Below are positions 1 through 22,477 of a stretch of DNA of 64,000 bases, piece by piece. The position numbers and the translations under genes were made by a program. Below the pieces are notes generated by a model, which was not told the DNA's origin, made no database searches, and saw nothing but the letters and a program-made list of their open reading frames with translations. Source of the stretch: Arcobacteraceae bacterium (GTDB lineage Bacteria; Campylobacterota; Campylobacteria; Campylobacterales; Arcobacteraceae); assembly GCA_021107755.1 (NCBI GenBank), contig JAIOSF010000032.1:18094-82093 (forward strand). The letters run 5' to 3'. Every line of letters starts with the position of its first letter. Position 1 is the stretch's first letter.

Positions 1-568
1 CGATTTTTGCTAGAGGATTTTTACTCTCTTTTGAGAGTTGAAACCATGTTGTTCCATCATATGTTTTTTGGTGTTCAGGATTTTTTATCAAACTATTTAT
101 ATCTTGTATGTAATCAAGTGATTCATCAACAGCACCAACTAAAGCTTCATCTATTTTATCAATAGAGATATCAAAATATGCTAATTCAAAAGCTTTTTCA
201 AAGGAAACATCTTCAGCTGTAATATAAAAGTTATTTCCAAGAGTATTTAAAGCTTCAGAGATTAAAAATCCTACATTATTCCCATTGATATTTAAAAAAT
301 CAAAAGGCATAACTATCTCATCTGTTTTACTTACTTGCATAAGAACAGTATTCATATCTTCTATACAACCATACTCACTAGCAGTATAAATATTGATATT
401 GGTATCATATTGTTTATTTTCAAGAGCTCTGAGTGCACCATAAATTGCCATAATATTAAATTTTGATACTCTTCTAAATTGTTTTTGTGTAACTTCTTTT
501 AAAAGTTGTTTATACTCTTTTGTCGTTTTATTTTGAAAGGTTGCATGAAAAGTTGTGCTAATATACAT
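1..568 (-). CDS. beta-ketoacyl synthase N-terminal-like (chain-length-factor-like) protein, N-terminal part; gene continues past the left edge
   Basis: Not in the ORF track because there is no stop in the window. Own translation from ATG 568-566 gives MYISTTFHATFQNKTTKEYKQLLKEVTQKQFRRVSKFNIMAIYGALRAL..., with no in-frame stop down to nt 2. Same RR-x-S/T...A..A layout as the CLF-like ORF 16949-17620. Lies directly downstream of a KS gene. Confidence 0.45.
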   Translation of the reverse strand, partial: MYISTTFHATFQNKTTKEYKQLLKEVTQKQFRRVSKFNIMAIYGALRALENKQYDTNINIYTASEYGCIEDMNTVLMQVSKTDEIVMPFDFLNINGNNVGFLISEALNTLGNNFYITAEDVSFEKAFELAYFDISIDKIDEALVGAVDESLDYIQDINSLIKNPEHQKTYDGTTWFQLSKESKNPLAKI

Positions 569-574
569 ATAAAT

Positions 575-1723
575 TTAACCTTTGTTACTTAATATTAAAG
601 TGGTATTACTTCCACCAAAACCAATAAATTGGAATAATATAGTGGTATTTGATACAGGTTTATTTGCTAATAAAGGTTCAAAAGAGATATCTTCATAGCC
701 ATTTTGATAGTTGAGTGTTTTAGGGATAAATCCCTCTTTTATAAATTCACATAGTAAAACTATCTCAGAAGTTCCACAAGCCCCTAGTGTATGTCCTAAA
801 AAAGGTTTTAATATTACTACATCTGTTGTTTCATTATAAGTTTTAAAAAGAGTATCAAGTGCTTTTGCTTCAGAGAGATTTGAGTTCTCACTTCCTGTTG
901 CATGCGCTTTGATACAAGTTAAATCTTTAGGGGTAAGGTATGCTTTTTTTAAAGCTTTTTGCATAGAGTTACAAGTTGTTTCCCCTGATGGATTTGAACC
1001 CGTTATTGAATGGTTATCAAAAGAGGTATTAGTAGCTATTACTTTAAAACAAGTATTGTCTTTTTTTGCACTGTCTAAAACTACAGCAGAACAGGTTTCC
1101 CCTAAAATCAAACCATCACTTTCTTTATCAAATGGTTTGTATATTCCATTTTTACTCAGAAGCATAAGTGATTCAAAACCTTTATAGGTTGATTTATTAA
1201 AGAGTTCAAGTCCTATGATTAAAGCTCGTTTTATTTTGTTTGCTTGGATAAGTTCTGTTGCATATGATATTGAGTTTGCTGTTGAGGTACAAGCTGTTTG
1301 TAGTATAGTGGCTTTATATTTTGAATCTACTAAGTTTTCAACAAAAGTACCAATATTTCCATACCCAACCTCTTCAAGCATTTTTGTTGATTGGTTATTG
1401 TAGTAGAGTTGACTTTGCTCTTCATTTATAGATATTGACATTGAGGTTGAACCTATAAAGATATGTAACTCTTTTTGTTCCTCTTGTGATAAGTTTGCAT
1501 CTTCTATAGCTTGAGAGATAGTATCTTTTAATATTGTATAAAATTTTTCTTTTTCATTCTGAAAAGTTTGATTGATTTTAAAAAAATTAAATCCATTGTG
1601 ATTATCTTGAACAAAATCTTTATAATTTGTATTGTCTATTTTTTTTGCAGTTTGGATACTTTGAAATTTATCATTACCTAGTGCACATACTAATGATGAA
1701 CCAGTGATATAAACTTGTTTCAT
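575..1723 (-). CDS. beta-ketoacyl-ACP synthase (KAS I/II family, APE-type)
   Basis: 382 aa. Active-site Cys context LQTACTSTANSISYA; His motifs KAHATGSENSN and GHTLGACGTSE; C-terminal GFGGSN. Confidence 0.85.
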   Translation of the reverse strand: MKQVYITGSSLVCALGNDKFQSIQTAKKIDNTNYKDFVQDNHNGFNFFKINQTFQNEKEKFYTILKDTISQAIEDANLSQEEQKELHIFIGSTSMSISINEEQSQLYYNNQSTKMLEEVGYGNIGTFVENLVDSKYKATILQTACTSTANSISYATELIQANKIKRALIIGLELFNKSTYKGFESLMLLSKNGIYKPFDKESDGLILGETCSAVVLDSAKKDNTCFKVIATNTSFDNHSITGSNPSGETTCNSMQKALKKAYLTPKDLTCIKAHATGSENSNLSEAKALDTLFKTYNETTDVVILKPFLGHTLGACGTSEIVLLCEFIKEGFIPKTLNYQNGYEDISFEPLLANKPVSNTTILFQFIGFGGSNTTLILSNKG

Positions 1724-1989
1724 TATTTTGATTGAATATGCTCTGTTAAAGAGTTTATAGAAACCATTATTTTTCGAAGTTCCTTACTATCAGTTGTATT
1801 GAGGTTGTATTTTTTGTTTAAAGCAAGTGAAATTTGCAACGCATCTAAAGAGTCTAGTTGAAGATTTGAATCGGAACCAAAAAGTATCTCATCATCTGTT
1901 ATATCATCAACTTCACACTCTTTTTCACACTCATCTATGATAAGTTGTTTGAGTTCATTTTTTAAATTCTCAGTGTCGAAATTTGACAT
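1723..1989 (-). CDS. acyl carrier protein
   Basis: 88 aa, acidic. Phosphopantetheine-Ser motif in LQLDSLDALQISLAL. Translationally coupled to flanking genes. Confidence 0.8.
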   Translation of the reverse strand: MSNFDTENLKNELKQLIIDECEKECEVDDITDDEILFGSDSNLQLDSLDALQISLALNKKYNLNTTDSKELRKIMVSINSLTEHIQSK

Positions 1990-3152
1990 TATACATTTTC
2001 CTTTTTCTTTAAAACCATATATGATAAAGCTAAAAAACTACATCCAAATATCACAAGATAAAGAATATAAGTTCTTATATCACTCAGCCCGCCACCCATT
2101 ACAAAAATCTCTAACAACCCTTCAAGTCCCCAATTCATAGGGGAAAAAGTTGTGATATTTTGCATAAATTCAGGCATTACAAATTTTGGTACCATGATAC
2201 CACCAAGTGCTGCTAATAATATATTAGAGACACCACCAATTGTAGTTGCTTCCTCTGAAGTACTACTTATATTTGCTATAAATATAGCAAAAGAGATAGC
2301 TGCAAACGAAATTGCACTACTCATCATAAAAATTAAACCATAGTTTCCATTTATTTGGAGAGTATCTCCATTTAGTAGAGGCACTATATAAATCCCAACT
2401 AATATCATAAATAATACTTGAATTTGGTTTATTATAAAATATGGTACCATTTTACCTAAAATAATTGAAATAAAAGGTATATCCATACTTTTCAATCTAT
2501 CAATTGTTCCAAAATTCTTTTCATTTATAAAAGCATTTGAGATAGGAATGAGAATAAAAAACATTGAAAAAACAAGCCAAGATGGTACACTATATTGTAC
2601 AGAAGTTGGTTTGATTTTAAATTTTTCCTCTTTATAAGTTGGGATAATAGAGATTTTATCATTTAACTTTGACAAAGTTTTTCCATCTATTTTATTTTTT
2701 ATAAAATACTCTTTCATAATTTGTTTTGAAATGATCTCAGTAAGTAGGTTTTTAAATAACAATTGGTTTTGTAAAGAGATACTTGGATTTAGATAAATAT
2801 CAATATGAAAATCTTTTTTATTTGTATTAATTTGAGTTTTATACTCTTGTACTATATTGACAATAAAATCAAAATTTTTCTTATACATAAGTTCTTTTAT
2901 ATTTTCATTATTTGTAATTTTAGCTTGAAAATAATTGTTTTTATTGATCTCTTGTGTTAAGTGTGTTGTATCTTTATTACTCAAAGTATTTATTGCAACT
3001 TGTAGTTTTGTATCTATAGTATTTGAATAGGTATTTTGGAGTGCCAATGACATAATAATAATAAAAAGTGTAGGCATAATAAAAAGTACTAAAAGAGCAT
3101 GGATATCTCTGCTAATGAGTAAAAATTCTTTTTTTAAAATATATCTAAACAT
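1989..3152 (-). CDS. ABC-2 type transporter permease
   Basis: 387 aa. N-terminal TM, long soluble loop, then a cluster of C-terminal TM helices. Start abuts the stop of the ATPase gene. Confidence 0.7.
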   Translation of the reverse strand: MFRYILKKEFLLISRDIHALLVLFIMPTLFIIIMSLALQNTYSNTIDTKLQVAINTLSNKDTTHLTQEINKNNYFQAKITNNENIKELMYKKNFDFIVNIVQEYKTQINTNKKDFHIDIYLNPSISLQNQLLFKNLLTEIISKQIMKEYFIKNKIDGKTLSKLNDKISIIPTYKEEKFKIKPTSVQYSVPSWLVFSMFFILIPISNAFINEKNFGTIDRLKSMDIPFISIILGKMVPYFIINQIQVLFMILVGIYIVPLLNGDTLQINGNYGLIFMMSSAISFAAISFAIFIANISSTSEEATTIGGVSNILLAALGGIMVPKFVMPEFMQNITTFSPMNWGLEGLLEIFVMGGGLSDIRTYILYLVIFGCSFLALSYMVLKKKENV

Positions 3153-4012
3153 CAGTCTCTTAAATTCCCTTTTGTAAGATTTAAAAACAGCTCTTCTAAG
3201 TTTTTGTTATTAAAAACTATATTTTCTATAGGGGTGTTTCTGTTTTTAAGAAGAGCAAGTGTTTCAATAAGGTTATTATAATCATCTTTAACATTAACTT
3301 GAATATCTTCTGTATCTGTTTTTATAGTGACAAAAGAGTTTTTTTCTAAAAGTAACTCTTTTTTCTCATGTAAAATAATTTTATGATTATCAAGTATTGC
3401 GATATCATCACAAAGGTATTCTATCTCTTCCATATAGTGTGAGGTGTATATAATAGTTGTTTTATCTTCTTGATTGATTCGTTTTATAACATCAAGTATA
3501 TATTTTCTAGATTGTGGGTCAATTCCTACTGTTGGTTCATCAAGATAGAGTATTTTTGGATTATTGAGTAAGCCAATAGCGATATTTAATCTTCTTTTTA
3601 CACCACCTGAATATGTATGGGCTCTTTTATCTAAAAATTTTTCTAAAGAAGTTACCTCTACACAATACTCTATTCTTTTTCTTAGTTCACTATTTTTAAG
3701 TCCATATAATGCACCAAAAAACTCTAGGTTTTCATAAGCAGTAAGATTTGGATAGAAAGCATAAGTTTGTGGCACATAAGAGCTTATTTGTTTGATCTGT
3801 TTTTTATCTTTTTGATAATCATATCCAAAGATATCTATCTCTCCTGAATCGCTAGTTTGCAGATAATTCATAATTGATACAAGGGTAGTTTTACCTGCAC
3901 CATTAGGTCCTAAGAGTCCAAAAAGTGAACCCTCTTTTATTTCTAAAGAAAGATTATCTAGTACCTTATTTTTTTTATAGGATTTTGTTAAGTTTTTTAT
4001 CTCTATAGTCAT
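3152..4012 (-). CDS. ABC transporter ATP-binding protein
   Basis: Walker A GPNGAGKTT, ABC signature YSGGVKRRL, Walker B ILYLDEPTVGID. Confidence 0.9.
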   Translation of the reverse strand: MTIEIKNLTKSYKKNKVLDNLSLEIKEGSLFGLLGPNGAGKTTLVSIMNYLQTSDSGEIDIFGYDYQKDKKQIKQISSYVPQTYAFYPNLTAYENLEFFGALYGLKNSELRKRIEYCVEVTSLEKFLDKRAHTYSGGVKRRLNIAIGLLNNPKILYLDEPTVGIDPQSRKYILDVIKRINQEDKTTIIYTSHYMEEIEYLCDDIAILDNHKIILHEKKELLLEKNSFVTIKTDTEDIQVNVKDDYNNLIETLALLKNRNTPIENIVFNNKNLEELFLNLTKGNLRD

Positions 4013-4013
4013 C

Positions 4014-5198
4014 TTATTGTATCAACATCTTTTTGCCTACTAGGGTTGTTTTTATCTCATCAACTAATTTTAGGTTTATAGTAAATCTCATATTTGATAA
4101 CTCTTTTTTAAGAAGGGATTTTATATCTTTGATTAGAATATTTTCTTTTGTTTGCAGTGTAATATTTAACTCTTCACCTCGTAAAGCATCTTTGTCTGTA
4201 GTTACAAACACTACAGCTTTTTCTATGTTTGGTTGTGTTTCTAATATATTTTCTATTTGTATAGTTGAGTATCTTTTTCCTGCTAGTTTTATAATTTGTG
4301 AACTTCGTCCAACAAGTTTGAATTGATTTTCTTCTATCTCTACAAAATCAAAAGTTTGAATCTCATGATTTGTCACTTTAAATTTATCTTCATAAAGGAT
4401 ATTTGAGATAAAAGGGGATTTTACTTTGAGTTCCCCCTCTTTGTTTTGAGATATTTTCACACGATTCATAGGTGTCCATTTTTCATCATCATTATATTTA
4501 TATGCAATACCACCTGTTTCAGTTGAGCCAAATATTTGGATAATATCAGTAGAAAAATTGTTATAAAACTCTTTTGATACCTCTGGAAAAAGTGGTGCTG
4601 TTGAGCTTACAAAAATTGATTTACTTAAATCTTTTTTTATTTGAAGTTTATTAAGAGATTTTATATAAAGTGGCGTTGTAACTACCATCGAATATTCATC
4701 TACAAGTTCAAGTAGATCATGAGGTAAAAAATGCTCTTTTATAATTATATCTATATCATTTACCAAAGGATAAATTGCACCAAAAAGTGAACCATAAAAA
4801 TGGATAAAAGGGACGGTTACGATGATTCTTTTAATAGTATATTGTTCAAAAAGTTTTGTAAGTTGTTCTATCTCACTTAAGAAGTTTTCTTTTGTTTTGA
4901 AAGCACCTATGGGTGCACCAGTTGTCCCTGAGGTAAAATAGATAAATGAAAAATCTTTCTTTTTAAAATCATTAAAATCTAGTTTATTAATTTTTTCTAT
5001 GATAGCTTTATTACTCTTGTCAAAAAGAATTGCTTTTGAATTATTAAAATAAGTTTTAAAAATATTTAAAATATTTTCCTCTTTTGTACTAAGTCCAATA
5101 TAGGAGATGTCACTTTGTATCTCTGTATTAGTCAGAGTATCAGCCGATATGATATGTTCTGTTATAGAGCCATTATCATTGTAAACTTTTAGAGTCAT
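4014..5198 (-). CDS. AMP-dependent synthetase/ligase (aryl-acid adenylating enzyme, ApeH / 4-coumarate ligase-like role)
   Basis: 394 aa. AMP-binding motif FTSGTTGAPIG and GSTETGG. Sits in a cluster with an ammonia-lyase and ACPs. Confidence 0.7.
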   Translation of the reverse strand: MTLKVYNDNGSITEHIISADTLTNTEIQSDISYIGLSTKEENILNIFKTYFNNSKAILFDKSNKAIIEKINKLDFNDFKKKDFSFIYFTSGTTGAPIGAFKTKENFLSEIEQLTKLFEQYTIKRIIVTVPFIHFYGSLFGAIYPLVNDIDIIIKEHFLPHDLLELVDEYSMVVTTPLYIKSLNKLQIKKDLSKSIFVSSTAPLFPEVSKEFYNNFSTDIIQIFGSTETGGIAYKYNDDEKWTPMNRVKISQNKEGELKVKSPFISNILYEDKFKVTNHEIQTFDFVEIEENQFKLVGRSSQIIKLAGKRYSTIQIENILETQPNIEKAVVFVTTDKDALRGEELNITLQTKENILIKDIKSLLKKELSNMRFTINLKLVDEIKTTLVGKKMLIQ

Positions 5199-7267
5199 CG
5201 AGGAACCTTATGTGTTAATAATAAAATTATAAGTGACACTATACCAAGAGTTGCTATAAGACCAATTGAAAATAGGGCATTTACTTTTGAAAAAATCAAA
5301 ACACCAAAGCCAGCAAAAGTAGAGAGCAAAGAGTAAAATATCGCTTTTTGTGTATTGCTACTAAGCTTTGTATTATTCATGTAAATTCCATAATCAATAC
5401 TTAAAGAGACAAGAACTATCATCATAAAAATATGTAAGATATTTAACTCTACAAAAAAAGATACTAAAAGAATCAAAGCTATTGGAAATAAAATATAATT
5501 TAAAGCTTGGAAAAATCTATTTTTTACTGCAATATATAACATTACACAAATAAATACTAAAGCAATGATAGATAAAAACTGTAAACTTTGTAAAGACTTT
5601 GTTAAATCTTTTTTGAAAAGCTCTTTAAAACTTAATGTTTTGATATATGGTTCTTTAATGATATTGTCATAATCACTATTTGATACTATCGCATAACTTA
5701 TAAAGAGATTTTTGTATTTACCTATAGGAAAGTTTTGTAACTCTTGGTAAGTGTATTGTGGTAAATTACTTTGAAGTTTATAACTCTCATGAAATAAATT
5801 TTCTCGAAATCCAACTTCTTTTGTTACTGTATTTAATTTTTGATTGAGAGTTTCAAATCTCCTAGTATCAAACTTTTCAAAACTATTTTTAGTTGGTATA
5901 TTTTCTAAAGCACTTTTCGTTTTAGGATAGGTAGTTTGTAGATTATGTGTATTGTTCACTAACTCTTCTATTGAATTACCATAGAGTAACACAGCAGTTT
6001 TTTTATCTTTATTTATATATTTGTTAAAAAAGTTATCTAAAGATTGTAATTCAATATTATCTACATCAAGATTTTTAATATTAAAATCAATTTTGATATT
6101 TGGTATTGCAAGAGCTATTAAAATCACAGAGACAAGAGTTATATATATTGGTTTGAGTGTAAATCTATTTTTTGTTATATATGTTGATTGTGTTGATTTG
6201 ATATTTAAGTAAGGGAATAAAAAAGTAAATTGAATATATGAAAAAAGTAAAGCAGATATAGAAAAAATAGTTAGTTGTTGAATAAAACTAAAATCTACAA
6301 AAGAGAGTATAAAAAAAGCTCCAATTGTTGTACTCATACCAAAAAAAACATCTTTGTTTAAAGGTTTTCTTTGTTCATAATATCCATGCAGATAGTTGTG
6401 AAACATATAATCAATAGCAATAGTAGAAATAGAGATACCAAAAACAACGGTAAATATAGATAACTCATCAAAAATAAAAGCACTTATAACAAGTGCAAAT
6501 AATACAGAGGAACCAAGTGTTGTAACAGTATGCACTAAAAGTTTGAAATTTCGAAGAATAACAATATATAAAATAAATAAAACACTCAAAGCAAGAGTGA
6601 TGATGATATTTACATCACTTTTAATTTTTTCTTGATTTTCCACAAAATAAAACAAAGTGGAAAATGCCTCTATCTTTGCATCTGTTTGTTTTAAGTTTTG
6701 AACTAAATCATAAATCTCTTTATATTTGACAAAACTATTAACACTTTTGTCAAGTTGTAGAAAAGTTATATATCCATAGTTTTCTATTTTTATATAAGGT
6801 GACTTTAGTATGGTATTTTTTTCAAAAAGATTGAGTGGATCAATTGTATCGAGTGAAAAACTAAAAGGTGATGTGATTATTTTTTGATATATCTTTGTAA
6901 GTTCTTGTTTTATATCTAAGGAGTCGTATTTTTTCTCATCAAACTTATGAAGTAAATAGTAATATTTTTTTTCATACTCTTTATTGATAATAGAATTTGT
7001 TATTGGATCTATATTTTTATGTTCTAAAAGTTGCTTTTCTATTTTTTTTAAACTATTTAAAGTGTTTTTATCTTCCCCTTTATAAGCTATAAAAAGTTGT
7101 TTGTTTGTATTAAGTTTTTCAAACTCTCTTAAAAGTGCTTTATTTTCACCAGCAGGGAGAATACTTGTGATTTGTGTTGAGATATGATTAGGGACATCAC
7201 TAGCAAAAAAAATTGCTAGTAAAACAAATAATATTATAAAGTTAAGGTATTTACTCAATCTCTTCAA
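5195..7267 (-). CDS. MMPL/RND-superfamily membrane exporter (ApeM-like)
   Basis: 690 aa. Two bundles of hydrophobic helices separated by large soluble domains. Position next to the LolA-like gene matches APE clusters. Confidence 0.6.
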   Translation of the reverse strand: MKRLSKYLNFIILFVLLAIFFASDVPNHISTQITSILPAGENKALLREFEKLNTNKQLFIAYKGEDKNTLNSLKKIEKQLLEHKNIDPITNSIINKEYEKKYYYLLHKFDEKKYDSLDIKQELTKIYQKIITSPFSFSLDTIDPLNLFEKNTILKSPYIKIENYGYITFLQLDKSVNSFVKYKEIYDLVQNLKQTDAKIEAFSTLFYFVENQEKIKSDVNIIITLALSVLFILYIVILRNFKLLVHTVTTLGSSVLFALVISAFIFDELSIFTVVFGISISTIAIDYMFHNYLHGYYEQRKPLNKDVFFGMSTTIGAFFILSFVDFSFIQQLTIFSISALLFSYIQFTFLFPYLNIKSTQSTYITKNRFTLKPIYITLVSVILIALAIPNIKIDFNIKNLDVDNIELQSLDNFFNKYINKDKKTAVLLYGNSIEELVNNTHNLQTTYPKTKSALENIPTKNSFEKFDTRRFETLNQKLNTVTKEVGFRENLFHESYKLQSNLPQYTYQELQNFPIGKYKNLFISYAIVSNSDYDNIIKEPYIKTLSFKELFKKDLTKSLQSLQFLSIIALVFICVMLYIAVKNRFFQALNYILFPIALILLVSFFVELNILHIFMMIVLVSLSIDYGIYMNNTKLSSNTQKAIFYSLLSTFAGFGVLIFSKVNALFSIGLIATLGIVSLIILLLTHKVPR

Positions 7268-8259: not shown

Positions 8260-8261
8260 CT

Positions 8262-12731: not shown

Positions 12732-12739
12732 ATAATTTA

Positions 12740-14544: not shown

Positions 14545-15504
14545 TTAATATCTTATTAAGTAAGTATCACCAAGTTTAGCACCATCCATAGGACTTGATA
14601 ACCATACTGCTGTATCTTTTCCTAAAGCTTCTACAGTTCTACCGAGTACTGCACAAGAGCCTTTGTAAGCACCCCAAAATCCACCACCAGAAATTCTGGC
14701 TGCTTTAAAAGTTTGGTATACCTTATCTCCTTGGACCAGTGCACCACTAATTGTTACATATTTATTATGACCTCTAAATGCTCCACCACGACTAACGGCA
14801 TCAACAATTTCAACTTTAAGTTGAATATCATTTTTCCCAATATCATTTTTGACTACCACATTTAAACCACTTGCTTGTGCTGATTTTAAAATAAACTCAC
14901 TCAATTGTTGATCAATAATACACTCAGCTTTAATATTTGGAGCAATTGGTGCTGTTGGAGCATAAGGGATAATACTTTTGATATAAACAGTTTTCCCCTC
15001 AAGATTTAAATCGCCTGATTTTTTTAGATTACTAGCTACTGTTGTAACTGGTCGAGCAACTACTGGTTGAGATACAGGAGCTTTTCTAACTGCTGAAGTA
15101 GTTTGTGTCATACCAATTTGAGCTAATTCATAGTTGATATTTCTCTCTAAGCTTGTAATCCATTTATTATAGTTTTTGTGAATAGTATTGGCTGTTGCAT
15201 CATAGCTTAACCCTTGACTAGTTTTATAATCTATTTTATACCCTTTTTCTGTATAAGGGATAGATACAACAGCGATATGCTTACCTCTTACATTAATAGT
15301 AGCAGTTAAAAGTCCCTCTTTTACTTTTTTAACAGACCAGTTTTTTCGTAAAGCTCCTTTTTTAATAGCTGTTTCAACTTGCTTGAGTGAACTCTTATTA
15401 GCAATAGTATTACTATTATCTATATTATATATAGTAGCACCGCCACAACCTGCTAACACTAAGATAACTAGCGCAGAGCCAATGTATTGAAGAAAGTTTT
15501 TCAT
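14545..15504 (-). CDS. lipoprotein: one copy of the same module plus a Gly-rich C-terminal domain
   Basis: 319 aa, lipobox VLAGC. N-terminal module ...NWSVKKVKEGLLTATINVRGKHIAVVSIPYTEKGYKIDY...TIHKNYNKWITSLERNI. C-terminal part is possibly DUF4410-like (recollection only). Confidence 0.6.
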   Translation of the reverse strand: MKNFLQYIGSALVILVLAGCGGATIYNIDNSNTIANKSSLKQVETAIKKGALRKNWSVKKVKEGLLTATINVRGKHIAVVSIPYTEKGYKIDYKTSQGLSYDATANTIHKNYNKWITSLERNINYELAQIGMTQTTSAVRKAPVSQPVVARPVTTVASNLKKSGDLNLEGKTVYIKSIIPYAPTAPIAPNIKAECIIDQQLSEFILKSAQASGLNVVVKNDIGKNDIQLKVEIVDAVSRGGAFRGHNKYVTISGALVQGDKVYQTFKAARISGGGFWGAYKGSCAVLGRTVEALGKDTAVWLSSPMDGAKLGDTYLIRY

Positions 15505-15577: not shown

Positions 15578-16273
15578 TTATTTTAAAATTTTTAAAAAAA
15601 ATAGTTTAAGGTGTAATAAAATAAATCTTGTAGTATCTCTATAGTTATCAAAATGACTTACTCTATCTTCAGGCTTAGGGTAAAAACACTCTATAATTGT
15701 TTGTGTAATATGTTTATGTTTCCATATATGTTTGACTATTACTTCTATCTCAAAACTAAATCCCACTTTTGTAGTGCCTAAATCAATAATTGACACAGGG
15801 TAAAGTCTAAATCCACTTAAAGAGTCTTCAATATCATAGCCACTATTCAATCGTATCCAAAAGTTATGAAATGCTCTTCCTATTTTGGACTTTTTTGGAA
15901 TATTATCTATATTGAAATTTCTTGAACCTATAATAATTTGATTTACTAATGTATTTTTTTCAATAAGCTTAATTACTTCACTAGCTAGATGTTGCCCATC
16001 TCCATCCATACTTACAATATTTTTATATCCTAGTTGTTTTGCTTTATTAGCACCTGTTAAAATTGCTTGCCCTTTACCAATATTATGCGGGTGTGTTTCT
16101 ATATGAATACTTTTGTATTTTTCTTCATTTAAAATATCTACTACTTTACTAATAGAACCATCATCTACTACAATTACATTATAGTTATTATCTAAAATAT
16201 CATCTACAACATTTTTTATTGTTTTAGGATTATTAAAAGTAGGAACAACTACTATCGTATCTTGTTTACTCAT
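15578..16273 (-). CDS. family 2 glycosyltransferase (ApeJ-like)
   Basis: VVVPTFNN, VVDDGS, DGDGQH motifs. Confidence 0.8.
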   Translation of the reverse strand: MSKQDTIVVVPTFNNPKTIKNVVDDILDNNYNVIVVDDGSISKVVDILNEEKYKSIHIETHPHNIGKGQAILTGANKAKQLGYKNIVSMDGDGQHLASEVIKLIEKNTLVNQIIIGSRNFNIDNIPKKSKIGRAFHNFWIRLNSGYDIEDSLSGFRLYPVSIIDLGTTKVGFSFEIEVIVKHIWKHKHITQTIIECFYPKPEDRVSHFDNYRDTTRFILLHLKLFFLKILK

Positions 16274-16580
16274 AGGTTATCTCAGCAATCTTACTATTTT
16301 TTTCATCATCTTTTACAATTTTTATTTTTGTTTTCAAGCCATCTTTTTTTATATTATATATTATTGTATCATTGGGTAAAGTATGGGATATAAATTTTGC
16401 AGAATGAAGTTTTTTTATAGGATTATTGAGTATATTTACTATTATCTCTATGAGTAAAAAACCTGGTAGTATTGGATAGTTTGGAAAATGTGCTTTAAAT
16501 ATAGGGTGATCTTCATCGCTTAATTTTACAACTACTTGTGTATTTTCATTTTGAACTATAGTGAATAAATTTTCTAACAA
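16266..16580 (-). CDS. 3-hydroxyacyl-ACP dehydratase (FabZ/FabA-like hotdog)
   Basis: 104 aa; HFPNYPILPGFLLIE catalytic-His region. Confidence 0.7.
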   Translation of the reverse strand: MLENLFTIVQNENTQVVVKLSDEDHPIFKAHFPNYPILPGFLLIEIIVNILNNPIKKLHSAKFISHTLPNDTIIYNIKKDGLKTKIKIVKDDEKNSKIAEITYE

Positions 16581-16592: not shown

Positions 16593-16952
16593 TTATGCTT
16601 CTTTTATAATAACACTAAAGTTACCAGAAATATATGGTTCTGTAGTGTTGGAGAGGTTAAATACTTCAAAATAAAATTGTTTAAATTCTGCAATTTGAGC
16701 TTCTAGTTTTAAGTGAATATGATATTGTAAACTATCAAATTCTCTATGTTGTTCAATATTTTTAACTGTAGCTAGAAAACCTAGTTTTGGTTTACTTTGA
16801 TCTACAAAAGATGAGCTAGATTGTGCAGCAGCCTCTATAAAAGTTGTTAAAGTTGGTATCTCTTTAAATTCACAAAATACAATAGAATTATTTTCATCTT
16901 TTTGGATAATTTTTTTAGCAAAAATTAAAGGGTCTAAATGGGGTAGTGTCAT
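16593..16952 (-). CDS. hotdog-fold protein (dehydratase partner or thioesterase of APE clusters)
   Basis: 119 aa. Adjacent to the FabZ-like gene, as for the ApeI/ApeP pair. No clear catalytic motif was read. Confidence 0.45.
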   Translation of the reverse strand: MTLPHLDPLIFAKKIIQKDENNSIVFCEFKEIPTLTTFIEAAAQSSSSFVDQSKPKLGFLATVKNIEQHREFDSLQYHIHLKLEAQIAEFKQFYFEVFNLSNTTEPYISGNFSVIIKEA

Positions 16953-17620
16953 ATTTTAATCTCTACAATATTTTGTTTTGTTTCATCAAACTGTTTTGCA
17001 ATAACAAATAACTCATAAAGAGAACTTGGAATTTTTATTGAATTATTATCTTTATTTATATCAATATTTGGTGACATTTTAGTTACTCTTATTTTTAAAG
17101 CTACACCAGACTCAAGATACTCTATACAGTTATTTACCTCTTCTATATTTGGGATATTGAGTGTTTCTGTAGCAATAATAAGAATCTCATCCCCATCAAG
17201 TGCCTTAATGGCTCCCATTTTAAGTAAATTTTGTGCTGTATTATCCCCACTTGAAACTGTCATAATTTCGCTTTTATTTCCGTATAACATAGAAAGGTAA
17301 GAGGCTGCTGTATTATAAACAGAATTTTGAAAATCTGTTGGACTTATATGGTCATTACATTTTATACTTTTTAATATACTAGCAGTTGCTGGAATCTCTC
17401 CAAAACTACTTCCATACACAATTCTTCCAATTTTAAAATCAACAGCATTTGCTAAATAAATAGCAATTTTAGCTGCCCTAGTAAGTCTTCTTCTTGTTAC
17501 CATTTTAGGAACTAACTCTTTTGTTTTCAGTTCTACAATCTCATCTTGTTCATAGATAAAAGCAGTATCTAGTATCTCTAAATTTATAGTCATTTTACTT
17601 TCCCAAATACTAAACTGCAA
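16949..17620 (-). CDS. beta-ketoacyl synthase chain-length-factor-like protein (no active-site Cys)
   Basis: 223 aa. Overlaps the KS gene by 31 nt. RRRLTRAAKIAIY... and YGSSFGE regions. Confidence 0.6.
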   Translation of the reverse strand: MQFSIWESKMTINLEILDTAFIYEQDEIVELKTKELVPKMVTRRRLTRAAKIAIYLANAVDFKIGRIVYGSSFGEIPATASILKSIKCNDHISPTDFQNSVYNTAASYLSMLYGNKSEIMTVSSGDNTAQNLLKMGAIKALDGDEILIIATETLNIPNIEEVNNCIEYLESGVALKIRVTKMSPNIDINKDNNSIKIPSSLYELFVIAKQFDETKQNIVEIKI

Positions 17621-18702
17621 TTATTTCCACCAAAAGCAAAAGAGTTACTTATTACATAGTTAATCTCTTTAGATATATTTTGTGTTGATAAATTGATATT
17701 TTTATTTTCTGCATCATTAAGATTTGTACTTGTAGGTATAGTTTGATTATTAATAATTAATTTACAAATAATTGCTTCTAGTGCTCCAGCTGCTCCTAGT
17801 GTATGACCAGTAATTGATTTAGTTGAAGTTACATAAGTGATATTCCCAAATAAACTCTCAATAGCTTTTGCTTCGGCTGAATCATTTGCGCTAGTACCTG
17901 TCCCATGTGCATTGATATAATTTATATTTTCTGTAGTTATTTTTGCTTTGAAAATTGCTTTTTCCATTGCCCTTTTTGCCCCTAACCCATCAGGGTGTGG
18001 ATGTGTCATATGATATGCATCAGAACTATATCCAACACCACAAATTTCTATACTATTTTCATTTGGTTCTGTTTGTACTAAAAGACAAGCGATAGCTTCA
18101 GATACATTCATCCCGTCACGGCTTGTATCAAAAGGTTTACAAGGCTCACTTGAAAGTACACCTAAAGATAAAAAGCCACCAACAGTAGTTTGGGATAATT
18201 GGTCTACTCCTAAAACTAATACATTTTTATAGATACCTTTTGTTATAACTTCATGTGCATATCCTAAAGCATTAGCACTTGAGGTACAGGCTGTAGAGAA
18301 AGAGATTCCATCAAGAAATTTGAATTTTTTTTCAAGTATTGTTTGTATTGTCTGTATATTGTGGTAGTTTGGGTCTACTTTTTTATAATCACCATATTTA
18401 AGATAAATCTCTTCAGTGATTGCTATTCCACCAACTGAAGAACCTACAACTAGCAGGGTGTCTTCAAATGTTGTTAAGTTACTATGAAGAAGAACCTCTT
18501 CACATTTTAATAGTAGATTATCAAAAAAACTTTTTTCTGAAGATATTTTTCCAATAGCTGCTGGAGTATTATTAAAATAATTTGAATCATTTTTTATAAA
18601 ACTATTTTGAGTACAAATATTATGAAAAAGTTGTTCTTCATTATCTCCAGAACAACAAATTAAAGCTGTATTTGTTATATAAGCTTTATTTTTTATTGTC
18701 AT
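17590..18702 (-). CDS. beta-ketoacyl-ACP synthase (KAS II-like, APE-type)
   Basis: Cys context FSTACTSSANALGYA, His motifs NAHGTGTSANDSAE and GHTLGAAGALE. Confidence 0.85.
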   Translation of the reverse strand: MTIKNKAYITNTALICCSGDNEEQLFHNICTQNSFIKNDSNYFNNTPAAIGKISSEKSFFDNLLLKCEEVLLHSNLTTFEDTLLVVGSSVGGIAITEEIYLKYGDYKKVDPNYHNIQTIQTILEKKFKFLDGISFSTACTSSANALGYAHEVITKGIYKNVLVLGVDQLSQTTVGGFLSLGVLSSEPCKPFDTSRDGMNVSEAIACLLVQTEPNENSIEICGVGYSSDAYHMTHPHPDGLGAKRAMEKAIFKAKITTENINYINAHGTGTSANDSAEAKAIESLFGNITYVTSTKSITGHTLGAAGALEAIICKLIINNQTIPTSTNLNDAENKNINLSTQNISKEINYVISNSFAFGGNNCSLVFGKVK

Positions 18703-18940
18703 TTATATAAGTTAAAAGTGATGAGATTGTTGCGAATATAGTATCGTATTTTGTTGAGTCAGTGATCTTCACACCATACTCTTTCTCTATAGCTAAAACA
18801 AGTTCAATAGAATCAACTGAATCTAAACCTAACCCAACATCACCAAATAATGGATCATTGTCATCTATCTCATTTGTTTCTATATCTTCAAGATTAAGAT
18901 ATTTTATTAAAACCTCTTTTAACTCTGTATTGCTTACTAT
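18686..18940 (-). CDS. acyl carrier protein, no canonical start codon (ATA at 18940?)
   Basis: Absent from the ORF track. Own translation gives I-VSNTELKEVLIKYLNLEDIETNEIDDNDPLFGDVGLGLDSVDSIELVLAIEKEYGVKITDSTKYDTIFATISSLLTYINDNKK*. The DSVDS(I/L) ACP motif is present. The frame opens right after TAA 18943-18941, with AAGG 7-8 nt upstream of ATA. The stop overlaps the KS start. Confidence 0.6.
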   Translation of the reverse strand: MVSNTELKEVLIKYLNLEDIETNEIDDNDPLFGDVGLGLDSVDSIELVLAIEKEYGVKITDSTKYDTIFATISSLLTYINDNKK

Positions 18941-19005: not shown

Positions 19006-20001
19006 TTAGATTGTTTTTAAAATTTTAAAAGCTTCCTCTTCTATTTTTGAAGCTTCAACCAAAAATTTGGCTATCTCTTTGGAATCTAATCTATCTATAT
19101 GCTTTGCACCCATCACACATTTTAAAGCAAATTCTCTTAAAATATCACCAGATTGTGTTATAAGTTCACTTGCAGTTTGCAGTTTGTTATTATCTAAATT
19201 ATATTGCTTTGCCTCTTGTAAAAATGCTGAATATAAAAATCTGAAACCACCACCACCAGTTCCTATCTCTTCTTGCATTCTTACGATATGAGTAAGATAG
19301 TTTTTTACATATCTTTCATCATCATTATTTTCTATTTTTTCAATTGCACTTGCTAGTTTTCTCATCCCTTTTATCCCCGCAAATGGAAAAGGTGTTGTCA
19401 TTGATTTTGCATTTTTTTTGATTGATTTTTTTAATATATTCTCATAGTCAATATTTTGTGGAATATGTTGTGGATAGTATAAAAAACCTTTTGGTGCAAA
19501 AACACCTTTAGCAAATCTTGCGATTGTCAATTTATTTTCTTTTGCTCTTACTACATCTTCAAATACAGGGTCAGAAATAAGATACTCATCATTTTCTTTC
19601 CCATACACAAGTAGATTATGAGCATTAAAATGAAATCTCATATCTTCTGGCATATATGGAAGATAATATACTGAAGTTTGAAGTCCAACAAGTTTCTTTT
19701 CATCTTGTACTAAACGGGTAAGTTCCTTATTTGCTTCAACCATATTTTTATATTGTTTTTTATATATTTTTACACCAAGTCTTTTATCAATATTTTTAAT
19801 AATATTTTTTGGTACCTCTCTATATGCAATTAAGGGCATATTATTAAGTTTTATAATTGGTAAAAAAACAAATGATAAAGAGTGAGTTATTCCAAAAGCC
19901 ATAGGTTCACTAATTGGAAGTCCATAGCTTGTTAAAAGTGTTGAAACTACACCACTTTCACAATGTGCAAATTGATTATGTTTAAAATTATTTTCCATCA
20001 C
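19006..20001 (-). CDS. BtrH N-terminal-domain-like / DUF4872-like protein (putative ACP-dependent acyltransferase, papain-like Cys)
   Basis: 331 aa. N-terminal FAHCESGVVSTLL resembles the remembered BtrH_N Cys motif. Family assignment not verified. Confidence 0.45.
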   Translation of the reverse strand: MMENNFKHNQFAHCESGVVSTLLTSYGLPISEPMAFGITHSLSFVFLPIIKLNNMPLIAYREVPKNIIKNIDKRLGVKIYKKQYKNMVEANKELTRLVQDEKKLVGLQTSVYYLPYMPEDMRFHFNAHNLLVYGKENDEYLISDPVFEDVVRAKENKLTIARFAKGVFAPKGFLYYPQHIPQNIDYENILKKSIKKNAKSMTTPFPFAGIKGMRKLASAIEKIENNDDERYVKNYLTHIVRMQEEIGTGGGGFRFLYSAFLQEAKQYNLDNNKLQTASELITQSGDILREFALKCVMGAKHIDRLDSKEIAKFLVEASKIEEEAFKILKTI

Positions 20002-20389
20002 TAAACCCTTTTAAATCATTTATCGTTATACCAAAAATATCACTATACTTTTGAAGAATTTTATCATTTAATTTTCTAAAATATTTAGCTTTTAAATGTC
20101 TTTTAACTTTAAATTGAAAAAAACCAACAACAGAAGCTAAAGTAGGTATATCCATTCTGTTTTTATACATATAGTATTCTATTGGGGAAGAGATATTATT
20201 TTTTATATTTTCTAAACACTCTTTTTGTAGTATTTTATACTCCTCTACAGCTAGCTTAGTTGCATATTCTTCTATATTACTTCCATAGTTAAATGTTTGA
20301 AACTTTCCATTTTCATTAGGGGCATACATCACTTTTTGATGCCCATCTAGTGTTGAGTTTTCCTCATTTGGAATTTTGATTTGTTTCAT
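19988..20389 (-). CDS. hypothetical protein with possible C-terminal XRE-like HTH
   Basis: 133 aa. MDIPTLASVVGFFQFKVKRHL...YSDIFGITINDL resembles an HTH_XRE layout. Confidence 0.35.
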   Translation of the reverse strand: MKQIKIPNEENSTLDGHQKVMYAPNENGKFQTFNYGSNIEEYATKLAVEEYKILQKECLENIKNNISSPIEYYMYKNRMDIPTLASVVGFFQFKVKRHLKAKYFRKLNDKILQKYSDIFGITINDLKGFSDGK

Positions 20390-21528
20390 ACTACCTCTAA
20401 AGCCATAAATGAAGTTGAGAACCTGCCACTCTCAGGTATATAACAAAGTATTTTTTCACCTTTATTAAGTTTACCACTATTAAAAAGTTCCTCCAACATA
20501 ATATAGATAGATGCACTTCCCGTATTCCCAAATTTTGTTAAGTTAGTAAACCATTTTTCATAAGGTATCTCAAAATTTGCTTTTTTCAGACCTTCATATA
20601 CTTTATCTCTAAAATATGTTGAAGAGTAGTGTGGTAAAAAATAATCAAATTGTTCAGGCTTTAAAGATCGTTTTTTAGCAATTGTAATGATAGGTTTTGT
20701 TACTGTAAATTCAATAATATTTTCATTTAATAGTTTTACATCTTGTTTTATAGCAAGTAGAGATTTTTCCATCACTTCATCCTGAGAATAAGCTCTCCAT
20801 GAAGTTACCTTATTATCTTCTACATTTAATCCACTATACATACATACAGGCATCTCTCCAGCATAAGAGAGTATATCTATAAAATCAATTTTTAAAGAGA
20901 GTCCATTTTTATTTGGCTTATTTTGAAGTTTCATTGCCCCCGCACCATCTGAAAGCATCCATCGTAAAAAATCTTTTTCAAAGGCAATACTTGTATTTTT
21001 TTTAAGTTCATCAATGAGATGTTCAGATTCTTTTTGAAAGTTTTTAGCACTTAAAATAGGAGATGAAGTTTCACTTCCAGTTGCTATTGCACAAGATAAG
21101 TCACCACATTTAATACCATAATAAAGGTATTTTAAAGCATTAATTCCACTTAAGCAAATACCACTAGTACTTATTGTTTCTATCTCACTAATTTTAAGTT
21201 CCCCTTGTACCATAAGTGTGTGATTTGGCATAAGTTGATCAGGTGAAGTTGTACCACAGGAAAGAGATTCAATCTCATCTAAAGAAAAATTCTCATTTTC
21301 TAATTTTTTTATAGCGTTTGCTGTTAGTTGTGCATTTGAAAAGAGTGGTTTTTGAGTCCCTTTTTCAAGCACATAGTATCGTGTTTGTATACCATTACTT
21401 TTTAAAACAATTTTTCTAGCTTTTGATTTTTTGCCACCAATATATCCAAGATACTCTTCCATCTCATCATTACTAACAGGTTCATTTGGCATAAACTTTT
21501 CTATTTGATTGATATAAACATTATTCAT
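20386..21528 (-). CDS. FabH-like beta-ketoacyl synthase III (DarB-like dialkylresorcinol-forming KS)
   Basis: 380 aa. Cys in STSGICLSGINAL, His in LPHYSSTYF, Asn in FGNTGSASIY. Paired with the DarA-like gene. Confidence 0.65.
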   Translation of the reverse strand: MNNVYINQIEKFMPNEPVSNDEMEEYLGYIGGKKSKARKIVLKSNGIQTRYYVLEKGTQKPLFSNAQLTANAIKKLENENFSLDEIESLSCGTTSPDQLMPNHTLMVQGELKISEIETISTSGICLSGINALKYLYYGIKCGDLSCAIATGSETSSPILSAKNFQKESEHLIDELKKNTSIAFEKDFLRWMLSDGAGAMKLQNKPNKNGLSLKIDFIDILSYAGEMPVCMYSGLNVEDNKVTSWRAYSQDEVMEKSLLAIKQDVKLLNENIIEFTVTKPIITIAKKRSLKPEQFDYFLPHYSSTYFRDKVYEGLKKANFEIPYEKWFTNLTKFGNTGSASIYIMLEELFNSGKLNKGEKILCYIPESGRFSTSFMALEVV

Positions 21529-22477
21529 CTAACATAAATTCCTTCATTCTTTCATCCCCATTACCAGAGGGTTGTTCATAGGTTTCTTTCTCTACTTGTA
21601 CTTGATCTTTATTTGTTCTTCTTAAAATTGATTGAACAATCATATTAATTGGGACTACAGTTACAATAATAAGAAGTAAAAACATAAGATAAAGTATAAC
21701 CACAGGTTTTCTTTTTATATCACCTGGTTTCCCTAGTTTTTGTATTAAATTACCCCAAATATGAAAACTTTTTGTTGCAATCTTTTCACTTCTTATTAGT
21801 TTTGAGTTTACTTCTACTGCTTTTAAGCCTTGTAGTAAAGAGATATGTTCTTTCTCTTTATCGTTTTTTAAAGCTTCAACAATAGCTTTTCCAAATCTTT
21901 TAGTGTTATTTATCTGCTTTGGATCGATTCCAGCTTCACTCATACCCCATAAAGAATTAGTTTTCCCTGTAAGCATCCATCGTGGAGTTGTGATAAAAGT
22001 TTCAAGAGAGTTTCCTCTATCTATAAGTACAACATTATCAATAAGTTTTGCCCCGATATTATTTAATAAAGTTTTTACTTTTTCTTGTGCCATAATCCAC
22101 ATATTTCTACAACCAATAAGTGTTATAACTGGTTTATTTTGGAGTTTTTGTTTTGCATATTTAGATTTTAAAAATGCTGTTATAGGAATAGATGGAGATA
22201 AAAACCATACTTGATAAGCGAGTATAACTAAATCATAATTAGTCTCATCATCCTTGAAATTCTTGATATCACACCCGTTAAGATGAACAGACTCAGGGAA
22301 AGTATCCATAAAAGTCATTAAATCCCAAGGGAAGGGATAAGGTTTAATAGGTTCTATGTTTCTATAAGTAATTTGTATCGTAGTGTCATTTTGCTCAAGA
22401 GGTGCTATAAAGTTTTTTACAACATTATCAAGCTGTCCTGTTTGAGAATATGATACAACTAAAATATGTTTCTTCAA
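21521..22477 (-). CDS. DarA-like dialkylresorcinol biosynthesis protein (flavodoxin-like N-terminus, C-terminal TM)
   Basis: 318 aa. MKKHILVVSYSQTGQL flavodoxin-like start. TM segment VVILYLMFLLLIIVTVVPI. Lies immediately upstream of and overlapping the FabH-like gene. Recognised from memory of DarA proteins. Confidence 0.55.
   Translation of the reverse strand: MKKHILVVSYSQTGQLDNVVKNFIAPLEQNDTTIQITYRNIEPIKPYPFPWDLMTFMDTFPESVHLNGCDIKNFKDDETNYDLVILAYQVWFLSPSIPITAFLKSKYAKQKLQNKPVITLIGCRNMWIMAQEKVKTLLNNIGAKLIDNVVLIDRGNSLETFITTPRWMLTGKTNSLWGMSEAGIDPKQINNTKRFGKAIVEALKNDKEKEHISLLQGLKAVEVNSKLIRSEKIATKSFHIWGNLIQKLGKPGDIKRKPVVILYLMFLLLIIVTVVPINMIVQSILRRTNKDQVQVEKETYEQPSGNGDERMKEFMLDE

Follow-up and report, generated by a model that had tools for sequence, protein, structure and literature searches.

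Can a member of the Campylobacterota make a pigment of the flexirubin type, a class of compounds that serves as a taxonomic marker for Bacteroidota? The question is raised by a stretch of 64,000 nucleotides from an Arcobacteraceae bacterium (GenBank assembly GCA_021107755.1, contig JAIOSF010000032.1, forward-strand positions 18,094 to 82,093; this whole stretch is termed the window herein), in which positions 1 to 22477 carry genes for an aryl polyene (APE) and a dialkylresorcinol (DAR). Few bacterial natural products are as widespread as the APE lipids, or as poorly understood; links to biofilm formation and to protection from oxidative stress have been described. An original prediction, made from the sequence of the window, had read the region as a flexirubin-type cluster that would be unusual in its genomic background and was suggestive of horizontal acquisition. 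Our analysis supports the first part and not the second: the cluster probably directs the synthesis of a flexirubin-like outer-membrane pigment, an APE esterified to a DAR, and is chromosomal and vertically maintained, a reading to which we assign a probability of roughly 0.6.

Protein families were identified by Pfam and NCBIfam scans of the open reading frames (ORFs) in the window. Together with the ORF listing, these scans delimit a single biosynthetic cluster spanning positions 1 to 22477, a tight array of mostly overlapping genes that runs along the minus strand from the left window edge, with a halogenase gene as the sole plus-strand member. The near-contiguous minus-strand array, the gene classes listed for it and the combined APE and DAR content of the original prediction were all recovered; genes for DarG, DarH, a multi-pass membrane protein of 178 amino acids (aa) and four lipoproteins are additions to that inventory. 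In the direction of transcription from position 22477, the order is DarA, DarB, DarG, DarH, an acyl carrier protein (ACP), a ketosynthase (KS), a chain-length factor (CLF), two hotdog-fold dehydratase proteins, and a family 2 glycosyltransferase (GT2), then the four lipoproteins, the convergent halogenase, an LpxL-like acyltransferase, an ammonia-lyase dependent on 4-methylideneimidazole-5-one (MIO), a ketoreductase (KR), and the membrane protein, and lastly a LolA-like protein, an MMPL-like protein, an AMP-forming ligase, an ABC ATPase, an ABC-2 permease, a second ACP, a second KS, and a KS-like partner. The dar module is split in two, with the APE genes lying between its parts, and the whole forms one unit of ∼22.7 kb. 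This extent was taken from a metagenomic contig with an identical KS (L004; such L numbers denote loci from other contigs), in which the KS-like partner has its full length of 277 aa, with cdsA, dxr, and further housekeeping genes beyond it. Since 189 of the 277 residues fall inside the window, the last cluster gene lacks only about 88 codons, and the truncation predicted at the left edge, although real, is confined to these. The genes are intact, with lengths close to those of their Arcobacter nitrofigilis orthologues. As judged from sequence comparison, the array is no chance pattern, since many genomes have this set of genes together.

The starter unit of the polyene is predicted to be supplied by two genes:

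8978-10498, minus strand: MIO-dependent aromatic amino acid ammonia-lyase, probably a tyrosine ammonia-lyase (TAL) (PF00221, 475 bits; MIO motif GASGD)
4014-5198, minus strand: short AMP-forming ligase of 394 aa, presumed to activate (hydroxy)cinnamate (PF00501, 70 bits)

The lyase carries the NQD motif of phenylalanine ammonia-lyases (PAL) and TAL, not the QED motif of histidine ammonia-lyases (HAL); in comparisons with PDB entries, cyanobacterial PAL, SgTAM, and RsTAL scored above HAL from Pseudomonas, and every Campylobacterota locus with a lyase has it within the APE array. A role in histidine utilization was excluded on these three grounds. The top NCBIfam match of the protein is the BagA/FevW TAL model, below the cutoff of that model. 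Its substrate selectivity pair is F-H (NLFRFHGCGIG), invariant in 120 of the 120 homologues listed; by alignment, the pair is F-L in PAL and S-H in the tyrosine-specific SgTAM, and RsTAL has H-L. From these comparisons, tyrosine is favored over phenylalanine as the substrate, and a MIO lyase of this PAL/TAL type may be equivalent in function to FlxA. No chorismatase-type family (XanB2, for the supply of 3-/4-hydroxybenzoate) was found among the Pfam and NCBIfam matches of the cluster ORFs, and the role of starter supply is assigned to the lyase. For the ligase, the third-best NCBIfam match is the bacterial 4-coumarate-CoA ligase TIGR02372 (77 bits), a weak match below cutoff, and no FlxY-specific family is among its NCBIfam matches. 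The same gene ends the lyase-APE array in a Sulfurovum locus (L011) and a Sulfurospirillaceae locus (L019).

Assembly of the polyene could be carried out by the products of the following genes:

18686-18940, minus strand: APE ACP of 84 aa (DSVDS serine motif; ATA start, hence not in the ORF listing)
17590-18702, minus strand: APE KS, ApeO-like (top match PRK09185, 312 bits, under the 407 cutoff; Cys/His/His motifs)
16949-17620, minus strand: CLF-like KS partner, ApeC-like (PF13723, 68 bits; cutoff 25)
16593-16952, minus strand: FabZ/ApeP-like hotdog subunit of 119 aa (EAAAQ Glu motif kept; Cys replaces His)
16266-16580, minus strand: ApeI-like hotdog dehydratase subunit of 104 aa (catalytic His motif HFPNYPILPG; FabA/FabZ matches)
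8262-8969, minus strand: FabG-like KR (best NCBIfam match FlxB NF053542, 251.7 bits, cutoff 340; FabG TIGR01830, 250 bits)

The CLF-like protein matched PDB chains 6qsp_B (1e-5) and 7f28_A (5e-6). 6qsp_B is the non-KS chain of a Xenorhabdus KS heterodimer entry and is a chain that we take to be ApeC; the adjacent KS and CLF-like genes provide the pair expected for the ApeO:ApeC-type KS:CLF heterodimer of APE clusters. A heteromeric dehydratase of the ApeI:ApeP type, also expected of APE clusters, is represented by the two adjacent hotdog genes. Of these, the 104-aa protein is recognized by its motif and by its A. nitrofigilis orthologue, which matches PF22818 (ApeI-like). The 119-aa protein had no hidden Markov model (HMM) match, no match in a PDB sequence search with the protein or its orthologue profile, and none in a Pfam scan of the orthologues; because sequence and profile searches gave no match, its fold was taken from an AlphaFold2 (AF2) model (predicted local distance difference test score [pLDDT] of 86.6), for which Foldseek returned FabZ at template modeling (TM) scores of 0.76 to 0.80 and also the ApeI:P complex 6qsr_B. 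JGI annotates a homologue with 91% identity (P0422) as "hotdog family 3-hydroxylacyl-ACP dehydratase." When the profiles of the two small dehydratase families were compared with each other, the probability was only 1.7%. In alignments the two proteins are complementary, the 104-aa subunit having the His motif without Glu and the 119-aa subunit having Glu without His, the pattern expected if they formed a heterodimer sharing one active site. The start codon of the APE ACP is ATA both here and in a separately assembled contig (L001) and is ATG in two relatives (L007 and L008); no alternative in-frame ATG, GTG, or TTG lies upstream of the phosphopantetheine serine.

The DAR module is complete, comprising DarA, DarB, DarG, DarH, the ABC transporter DarI/DarJ, the ACP DarC, the KS DarD, and the KS-like partner:

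21521-22477, minus strand: DarA, presumed aromatase (flavodoxin/WrbA-like oxidoreductase domain plus C-terminal helices)
20386-21528, minus strand: DarB, KAS III-like cyclohexanedione-forming ketosynthase (StlD/DarB family, 603.5 bits; cutoff 450)
19988-20389, minus strand: DarG-family protein (NF053536, 138 bits; cutoff 70)
19006-20001, minus strand: DarH, BtrH-related acyltransferase and candidate esterifying enzyme (NF053550 DarH, 467.8 bits over the full length; cutoff 300)
3152-4012, minus strand: ABC transporter ATPase, DarI-like (PF00005, 106 bits; DrrA subfamily, 252 bits)
1989-3152, minus strand: ABC-2 permease, DarJ-like (PF12698, 109 bits)
1723-1989, minus strand: DAR-module ACP, DarC-like (PP-binding; NF006617, 49 bits)
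575-1723, minus strand: DAR-module beta-ketoacyl-ACP synthase, DarD-like (PF00109 and PF02801; Cys/His/His motifs TACTST, AHATGS, and GHTLGACG)
1-568, minus strand: KS-like partner without an active-site Cys, last gene of the cluster (first 189 of 277 residues; weak ketoacyl-synt match, E=0.014)

DarA matches no Pfam or NCBIfam model and is 63 to 100% identical to proteins that NCBI names "dialkylrecorsinol condensing enzyme." Its AF2 model (pLDDT of 91) matched flavodoxins and WrbA in Foldseek, and the C-terminal tail holds a hydrophobic stretch, probably membrane spanning as read from the sequence. The model suggests a membrane-anchored, flavin-dependent aromatase, and the flavodoxin-like fold fits the oxidative aromatase role proposed for DarA. 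DarH is composed of BtrH_N and DUF4872 domains. The KS at 575-1723 occupies the place of DarD/DarJ in published dar clusters (PMC3949708, PMC12968099), and the KS-like partner next to it has an A. nitrofigilis orthologue with 53% identity. The two KS (575-1723 and 17590-18702) and two ACPs that had been predicted are thus accounted for; of the two predicted CLF-like proteins, the one at 16949-17620 is upheld by PF13723 and 6qsp_B, and the other, at 1-568, is only weakly KS-like.

Tailoring, lipid handling, and export were assigned to a further set of genes:

11496-12707, plus strand: flavin-dependent halogenase (PF04820; CmlS model, 161 bits, far under the 900-bit cutoff)
10528-11400, minus strand: LpxL-like lipid acyltransferase (PF03279, 53.8 bits)
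15578-16273, minus strand: GT2 (PF00535, 64 bits)
7251-7733, minus strand: secreted LolA-like lipid carrier of 160 aa (hydrophobic N terminus resembling a signal peptide, by eye)
5195-7267, minus strand: MMPL/RND-like membrane exporter (weak MMPL match, 17.9 bits, under the 20.5 cutoff)
7723-8259, minus strand: multi-pass membrane protein of 178 aa (several hydrophobic stretches by eye; no family match)
12740-13264, 13266-13712, 13737-14519, and 14545-15504, minus strand: four tandem lipoprotein genes (lipobox-like L(A/S)G/C motifs by eye)

The halogenase has the motifs GGGPSG (GxGxxG), WLWIIP (WxWxIP), and FLDPVFSSG (FxxPxxSxG). Its gene is present here and in Aliarcobacter cryaerophilus and is not in the A. 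nitrofigilis locus. A Methyltransf_2-type O-methyltransferase (L036:4585-5649 and L038:1987-3051) occurs in the clusters of A. nitrofigilis, A. cryaerophilus, Sulfurovum, and metagenome-assembled genomes (MAGs) with Dar genes only; tblastn with the cluster O-methyltransferases of A. nitrofigilis and A. cryaerophilus found no homologue in the whole 64 kb, nor is there one in the three closest relatives (L006 to L008), and a methyltransferase of the ApeB kind was likewise not found in the cluster by Pfam/NCBIfam scans and tblastn. Because the presence of the O-methyltransferase and the halogenase varies, ring decoration would differ by lineage. The set of genes for lipid anchoring and export that characterizes APE clusters (LpxL-like acyltransferase, GT2, LolA-like, and MMPL) is represented in full, with a weak match for MMPL. 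The LolA-like protein, part of the original prediction, had no HMM match with its own sequence and was recovered through its orthologue profile, which matched PDB entry 8t5j ("LolA family protein") with E=2.4e-4 over ∼135 residues. The predicted MMPL exporter gene is present, and its family assignment is weak, as listed; by eye, the protein has two hydrophobic, apparently membrane-spanning regions parted by long polar stretches, and its gene keeps its position in all APE-bearing loci. The gene for the 178-aa membrane protein is beside the KR gene in every APE locus. The lipoprotein block is variable, with two of the four genes missing in L006 and L007, which are among the closest relatives, and the lipoproteins had no match in other Campylobacterota loci save a weak one to 13737-14519 in L024. 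The lipoprotein at 13266-13712 matched the Sbal_3080 family at 40.5 bits, under the 80-bit cutoff, and a repeated domain of ∼100 aa without a family match is present in two copies in 13737-14519 and in one in 14545-15504.

The same cluster is found across the Arcobacteraceae. Genome contigs were scanned with exact 8-residue patterns from one protein, which gave 30 loci and missed most named Arcobacter species; the context in cultured strains was obtained outside this pattern scan, from loci encoding named orthologues. A record for "MAG: Arcobacteraceae bacterium" (88.7-kb contig) has an identical DarA, in agreement with the Arcobacter-like host of the original prediction; a low-GC Bacteroidota host was excluded by identical or near-identical proteins from Arcobacteraceae MAGs. 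DarA is 63 to 72% identical in Arcobacter aquimarinus, A. nitrofigilis DSM 7299, Malaciobacter halophilus, M. marinus, and M. mytili, and the lyase is 84 to 96% identical in, among the matches listed, Halarcobacter mediterraneus, "Ca. Marinarcus," M. marinus, A. aquimarinus, A. nitrofigilis, A. cryaerophilus, and many metagenomic Arcobacteraceae. A. nitrofigilis DSM 7299 (type species, CP001999) and A. cryaerophilus have orthologues of every core gene, minus the four lineage-specific lipoproteins, in another layout: darABGH converge with the darK-D-C-J-I end, and ACP-KS-CLF-DH (dehydratase) are divergent from the rest. The two modules are adjacent in every Arcobacteraceae genome examined, and three Arcobacteraceae MAG chromosomes are collinear over the part fetched (KR/lyase to DarA), with the same hydrolase and purL neighbors as in the window. 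Elsewhere in the phylum the modules occur apart. Sulfurovum and a Sulfurospirillaceae MAG (L011 to L015 and L019) have the lyase-APE module alone, with no Dar genes within 10 kb; there the lyase is 80 to 83% identical and its neighbors 30 to 67%. In MAGs assigned to "Campylobacteraceae" (L021 to L027), DarA, -B, -G, -H, -I, -J, -C, and -D occur with a KS, GT2, LpxL-like acyltransferase, and O-methyltransferase and without lyase, ligase, or KR. The lyase is also far more conserved than its surroundings, at 80 to 87% across Arcobacteraceae, Sulfurovum, and Sulfurospirillaceae versus 30 to 77% for adjacent genes.

The base composition is native, as had been predicted: the cluster has a GC content of 28.2% versus 29.0% for the rest of the window, with a tetranucleotide correlation (r) of 0.993. 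Because orthologous clusters occur across the Arcobacteraceae, with synteny and native composition, these comparisons identify the cluster as a conserved family-level trait of the Arcobacteraceae and not a recent import, and its strong conservation across the family implies selection. The part of the original prediction that called the hybrid unusual in this background and horizontally acquired is not supported, given the A. nitrofigilis and A. cryaerophilus orthologues, the syntenic MAGs, and the separate occurrence of the two modules in other Campylobacterota. Outside the phylum, Marinobacter and a Bacteroidota MAG have the nearest DarB proteins, at an identity of only ∼50%. A specific tie to Bacteroidota is not supported by these identities, nor can a donor lineage be named from them.

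We propose the following pathway, in which the enzyme families, motifs, and conservation of the gene set come from sequence and structure comparison and every chemical step is inferred from characterized homologues. The MIO lyase would convert tyrosine (less likely phenylalanine) to 4-coumarate (or cinnamate), and the short AMP-forming ligase would activate the acid and load the starter. The KS/CLF pair, the FabG-like KR, and the ApeI/ApeP-like dehydratase would then extend it with malonyl units on the ACP, and since there would be no enoyl reduction, the expected product is an aryl-polyenoyl-ACP. Its ring could be chlorinated or brominated by the flavin halogenase and is expected to be unmethylated, because this lineage has no O- or C-methyltransferase. 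In the other arm, DarD, the KS-like partner, and DarC would supply acyl thioesters that DarB condenses to a dialkyl-cyclohexanedione, which the flavodoxin-like DarA would oxidize to the dialkylresorcinol. The BtrH-related DarH is the candidate for moving the polyenoyl chain from the ACP onto a resorcinol hydroxyl, and the LpxL-like acyltransferase, GT2, LolA-like and MMPL-like proteins, ABC transporter, and lineage-specific lipoproteins could anchor the lipid and carry it to the outer membrane. The product would most likely be a tyrosine-primed, possibly halogenated, unmethylated hydroxyaryl-polyene-DAR ester, whose probable role, by analogy with reports on other APEs, is protection against oxidants or light.

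Several observations weigh against this APE-DAR ester. The FlxA, FlxB, flexirubin_DarG, and resorcinol_DarB equivalogs of NCBI are all missed: the lyase scores 351.5 bits against NF053541 FlxA (cutoff, 700) and is not a FlxA orthologue by the NCBI criterion, the KR stays below the FlxB cutoff of 340, and DarG and DarB reach 114 and 504 bits (cutoffs, 170 and 550), so that only DarH passes. No thioesterase (ApeK) was found in the cluster by the Pfam/NCBIfam scans, the F-H pair of the lyase fits neither TAL (H-L) nor PAL (F-L) and makes the starter uncertain, and the ATA start of the APE ACP may mean lowered or abolished expression or early pseudogenization in this population. The searchable literature yielded no product chemistry for any Campylobacterota strain. 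Because the two modules are found apart in Sulfurovum and Campylobacteraceae MAGs, they should be able to work independently, with the ester link deduced only from DarH. It is this separability, seen in the lyase-APE loci that have no Dar genes within 10 kb and in the Campylobacteraceae MAGs that have Dar genes, KS, GT2, and LpxL-like acyltransferase but no lyase, ligase, or KR, that gives some weight to two separate products, namely, an APE lipid anchored via LpxL-like/GT2 functions, as in Escherichia coli and Vibrio, and a free DAR or cyclohexanedione acting as a signal or antimicrobial, as from the DarABC pathways of Pseudomonas and Photorhabdus. The retained LpxL/GT2/LolA/MMPL set is already an anchor in plain APE clusters, and the arrangement of the modules differs between Arcobacteraceae. 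To our knowledge, however, free-DAR producers carry only DarABC. DarAB are accompanied here by DarG, DarH, and an ABC transporter, as in the hybrid producers Chitinophaga, Flavobacterium, and Azoarcus (PMC3949708, PMC12968099); DarH is a homologue of an ACP-dependent acyltransferase and has no other obvious substrate here, and the modules stay side by side throughout the Arcobacteraceae examined. Two products, the main rival to the ester, appear somewhat unlikely.

Priming by phenylalanine would make the lyase a PAL and the pigment a phenyl-polyene without a phenolic hydroxyl group unless hydroxylated later, which would fail the test for a reversible color shift in KOH by which flexirubins are recognized. 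By motif alignment, Phe stands at the position of His89 of RsTAL, and Watts and colleagues are said to have converted this TAL to a PAL in 2006 by replacing that His with Phe; the best PDB matches are cyanobacterial PALs, and some orthologues are named "phenylalanine ammonia-lyase" by NCBI. We nevertheless consider it unlikely, as the pair ends in His, a residue that the tyrosine-specific SgTAM has there too, the BagA/FevW TAL model is the top NCBIfam match (albeit below cutoff), and FlxA, a proven TAL, has a motif 1 reported to be HAL-like (PMC3992019). Moreover, phenol-type halogenases normally require an activated hydroxy-aryl ring, and the known APEs and flexirubins are hydroxyaryl compounds. 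Little or no pigment would be made if the APE arm were silenced or crippled in this strain by the ATA start of its ACP. The replacement of ATG by ATA in two separate assemblies, with no other in-frame start before the serine, speaks for such a defect. ATA and ATT can, however, initiate at low efficiency, the remaining genes are all intact, the second ACP might take over, and, as read on the plus strand, 3 bases separate the ATA from a AAGGTAATAA stretch, a possible ribosome-binding site, all of which makes the defect improbable. Recent horizontal transfer from Bacteroidota, for which it can be said that flexirubin is classically a trait of that phylum and that the DarH and DarB family models score well, is very improbable given the native composition, the housekeeping neighbors on both sides, and the orthologous clusters across Arcobacteraceae genera, with modules in Sulfurovum and other Campylobacterota and identities that broadly fall with taxonomic distance. 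The missed Bacteroidota-specific equivalogs and the equal distance (∼50%) of DarB from Marinobacter and from a Bacteroidota MAG argue in the same direction. Among these readings, we retain the vertically maintained APE-DAR ester.

The right flank of the cluster consists of the gene for a lipoprotein alpha/beta-hydrolase and purL, and the remaining window holds housekeeping genes (moaA, purH, a BCCT transporter gene, glmS, and metK). The features of note outside the pathway genes are:

22721-23728, plus strand: lipoprotein alpha/beta-hydrolase, DUF915/PGAP1-like, divergent from darA (lipobox-like FTGC motif by eye)
12705-12732, both directions: terminator-like hairpin between the convergent halogenase and lipoprotein genes (perfect 12-bp stem with runs of A and T at its sides)

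The hydrolase gene keeps its position in the three closest genomes (L006 to L008) and is not beside darA in A. nitrofigilis; it may be an accessory esterase or a mere neighbor and, accordingly, may or may not belong to the cluster. The hairpin is a consensus match only, of which the region has as many as expected from shuffled sequence; it suggests a possible split of the minus-strand array into two units, from darA to the lipoprotein genes and from the lpxL-like gene to the KS partner. At 28% GC, a scan for sigma-70 promoters was uninformative (83 sites versus 82 expected), and tRNA and Rfam scans of the window gave no matches. Unrelated to the cluster, the gene for a 482-aa pentapeptide-repeat protein (28668-30116, minus strand) contains a 60-bp tandem duplication (29823-29943).

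The cluster shows that an entire Campylobacterota family, including cultivable type strains and food- and waterborne pathogens, keeps a complete lyase-primed APE plus DAR pathway. It is tempting, although at present doubtful, to go further and suppose that Arcobacteraceae, including the emerging pathogen A. cryaerophilus, make a true flexirubin-type APE-DAR ester in the outer membrane, the first from the Campylobacterota, and that very highly conserved TAL/PAL enzymes with an F-H pair, such as this lyase, form a new selectivity class. If this were true, the flexirubin-type pigment would be no Bacteroidota-specific chemotaxonomic marker, and a family-wide pigment might aid the tolerance to oxidative stress (aerotolerance) that separates Arcobacter from Campylobacter. 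A. nitrofigilis DSM 7299 would be an easy experimental system for esterification by DarH, for the function of the separate modules (Sulfurovum versus Arcobacter), and for a link between pigment and oxygen tolerance. A literature search returned no paper on this cluster or on pigment, APE, or flexirubin in Arcobacter or Arcobacteraceae; for APE clusters in Campylobacterota, counts are available from metagenome mining (PMC13635244). This is no new kind of system, as the genes are already public and APE-DAR hybrids outside Bacteroidota are already known (arcuflavin); the A. nitrofigilis record (GCA_000092245.1, CP001999) contains them, and its DarA orthologue carries the condensing-enzyme name in NCBI and UniRef.

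Published dar clusters of Chitinophaga, Flavobacterium, and Azoarcus yield proven APE-DAR esters (PMC3992019, PMC3949708, PMC12968099). With the flexirubin clusters of Bacteroidota (Chitinophaga pinensis flxA-Y plus darA-J and Flavobacterium johnsoniae Fjoh_1075-1110), in which FlxA/FlxY carry out priming and DarAB form the DAR (PMC3992019), the cluster shares priming by lyase and ligase, a polyene assembly resembling type II fatty acid synthesis, an LpxL-like acyltransferase, a LolA-like protein, a glycosyltransferase, an MMPL-type exporter, and the full DarA, -B, -G, -H, -I, -J, -C, and -D module, with DarH passing its equivalog cutoff and the KR matching FlxB best. It differs in having one KS/CLF pair for the polyene instead of about five KS genes, a Campylobacterota host, four extra lipoproteins, and a single 22.7-kb unit; family scans of positions 1 to 22477 found none of the FlxC/I/L/N KS set, methyltransferase FlxJ, deacetylase FlxP, desaturase FlxV, or Ntn-hydrolase FlxW. 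By the NCBI equivalog models, the cluster, although apparently flexirubin-like in function, stands outside the Bacteroidota flexirubin families. The combination of TAL, ligase, fatty acid synthase-like APE genes, and DarAB, given in the original prediction as defining Bacteroidota flexirubin clusters, was indeed found, with the lyase a probable TAL, yet it is not exclusive to them, given the four equivalog cutoffs missed here and the known non-Bacteroidota APE-DAR ester arcuflavin, a xanthomonadin-DAR hybrid of Azoarcus sp. BH72 (PMC3949708).

Azoarcus has in common with the window DarA, DarB, a BtrH-like protein, an ABC transporter, an ACP, a KS, and a trailing hypothetical gene, darK, as well as a halogenase and an AMP-ligase; it primes with 3-/4-hydroxybenzoate from the XanB2 chorismatase where a MIO lyase is found here, and its genes lie in three separate loci, not one unit (PMC3949708). 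DarK follows darJ there, at the place that the KS-like partner (1-568) holds here. The APE clusters of proteobacteria (E. coli CFT073, Vibrio fischeri, and Xenorhabdus doucetiae ApeA-R) share the compact layout, the single KS:CLF, the ApeI:ApeP-type pair, the FabG-like KR, the adenylating enzyme, and the lipid acyltransferase, glycosyltransferase, LolA-like, and MMPL proteins, and the Xenorhabdus APE structures 6qsp and 6qsr are direct matches to proteins of the cluster. Those clusters start from 4-hydroxybenzoate, usually include a thioesterase and a methyltransferase, and are not known to have Dar genes; the starter here is expected to come from an in-cluster ammonia-lyase. The DarABC pathways of Pseudomonas aurantiaca and Photorhabdus share the StlD/DarB-family DarB, a DarA homologue, and a dedicated ACP; they make free DAR or cyclohexanedione and are not known to have DarG, DarH, the ABC transporter, or polyene machinery. 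From its gene content, the cluster is thus a hybrid, combining a compact APE set of the proteobacterial type with a flexirubin-like lyase starter and a DAR module such as those of Chitinophaga and Azoarcus.

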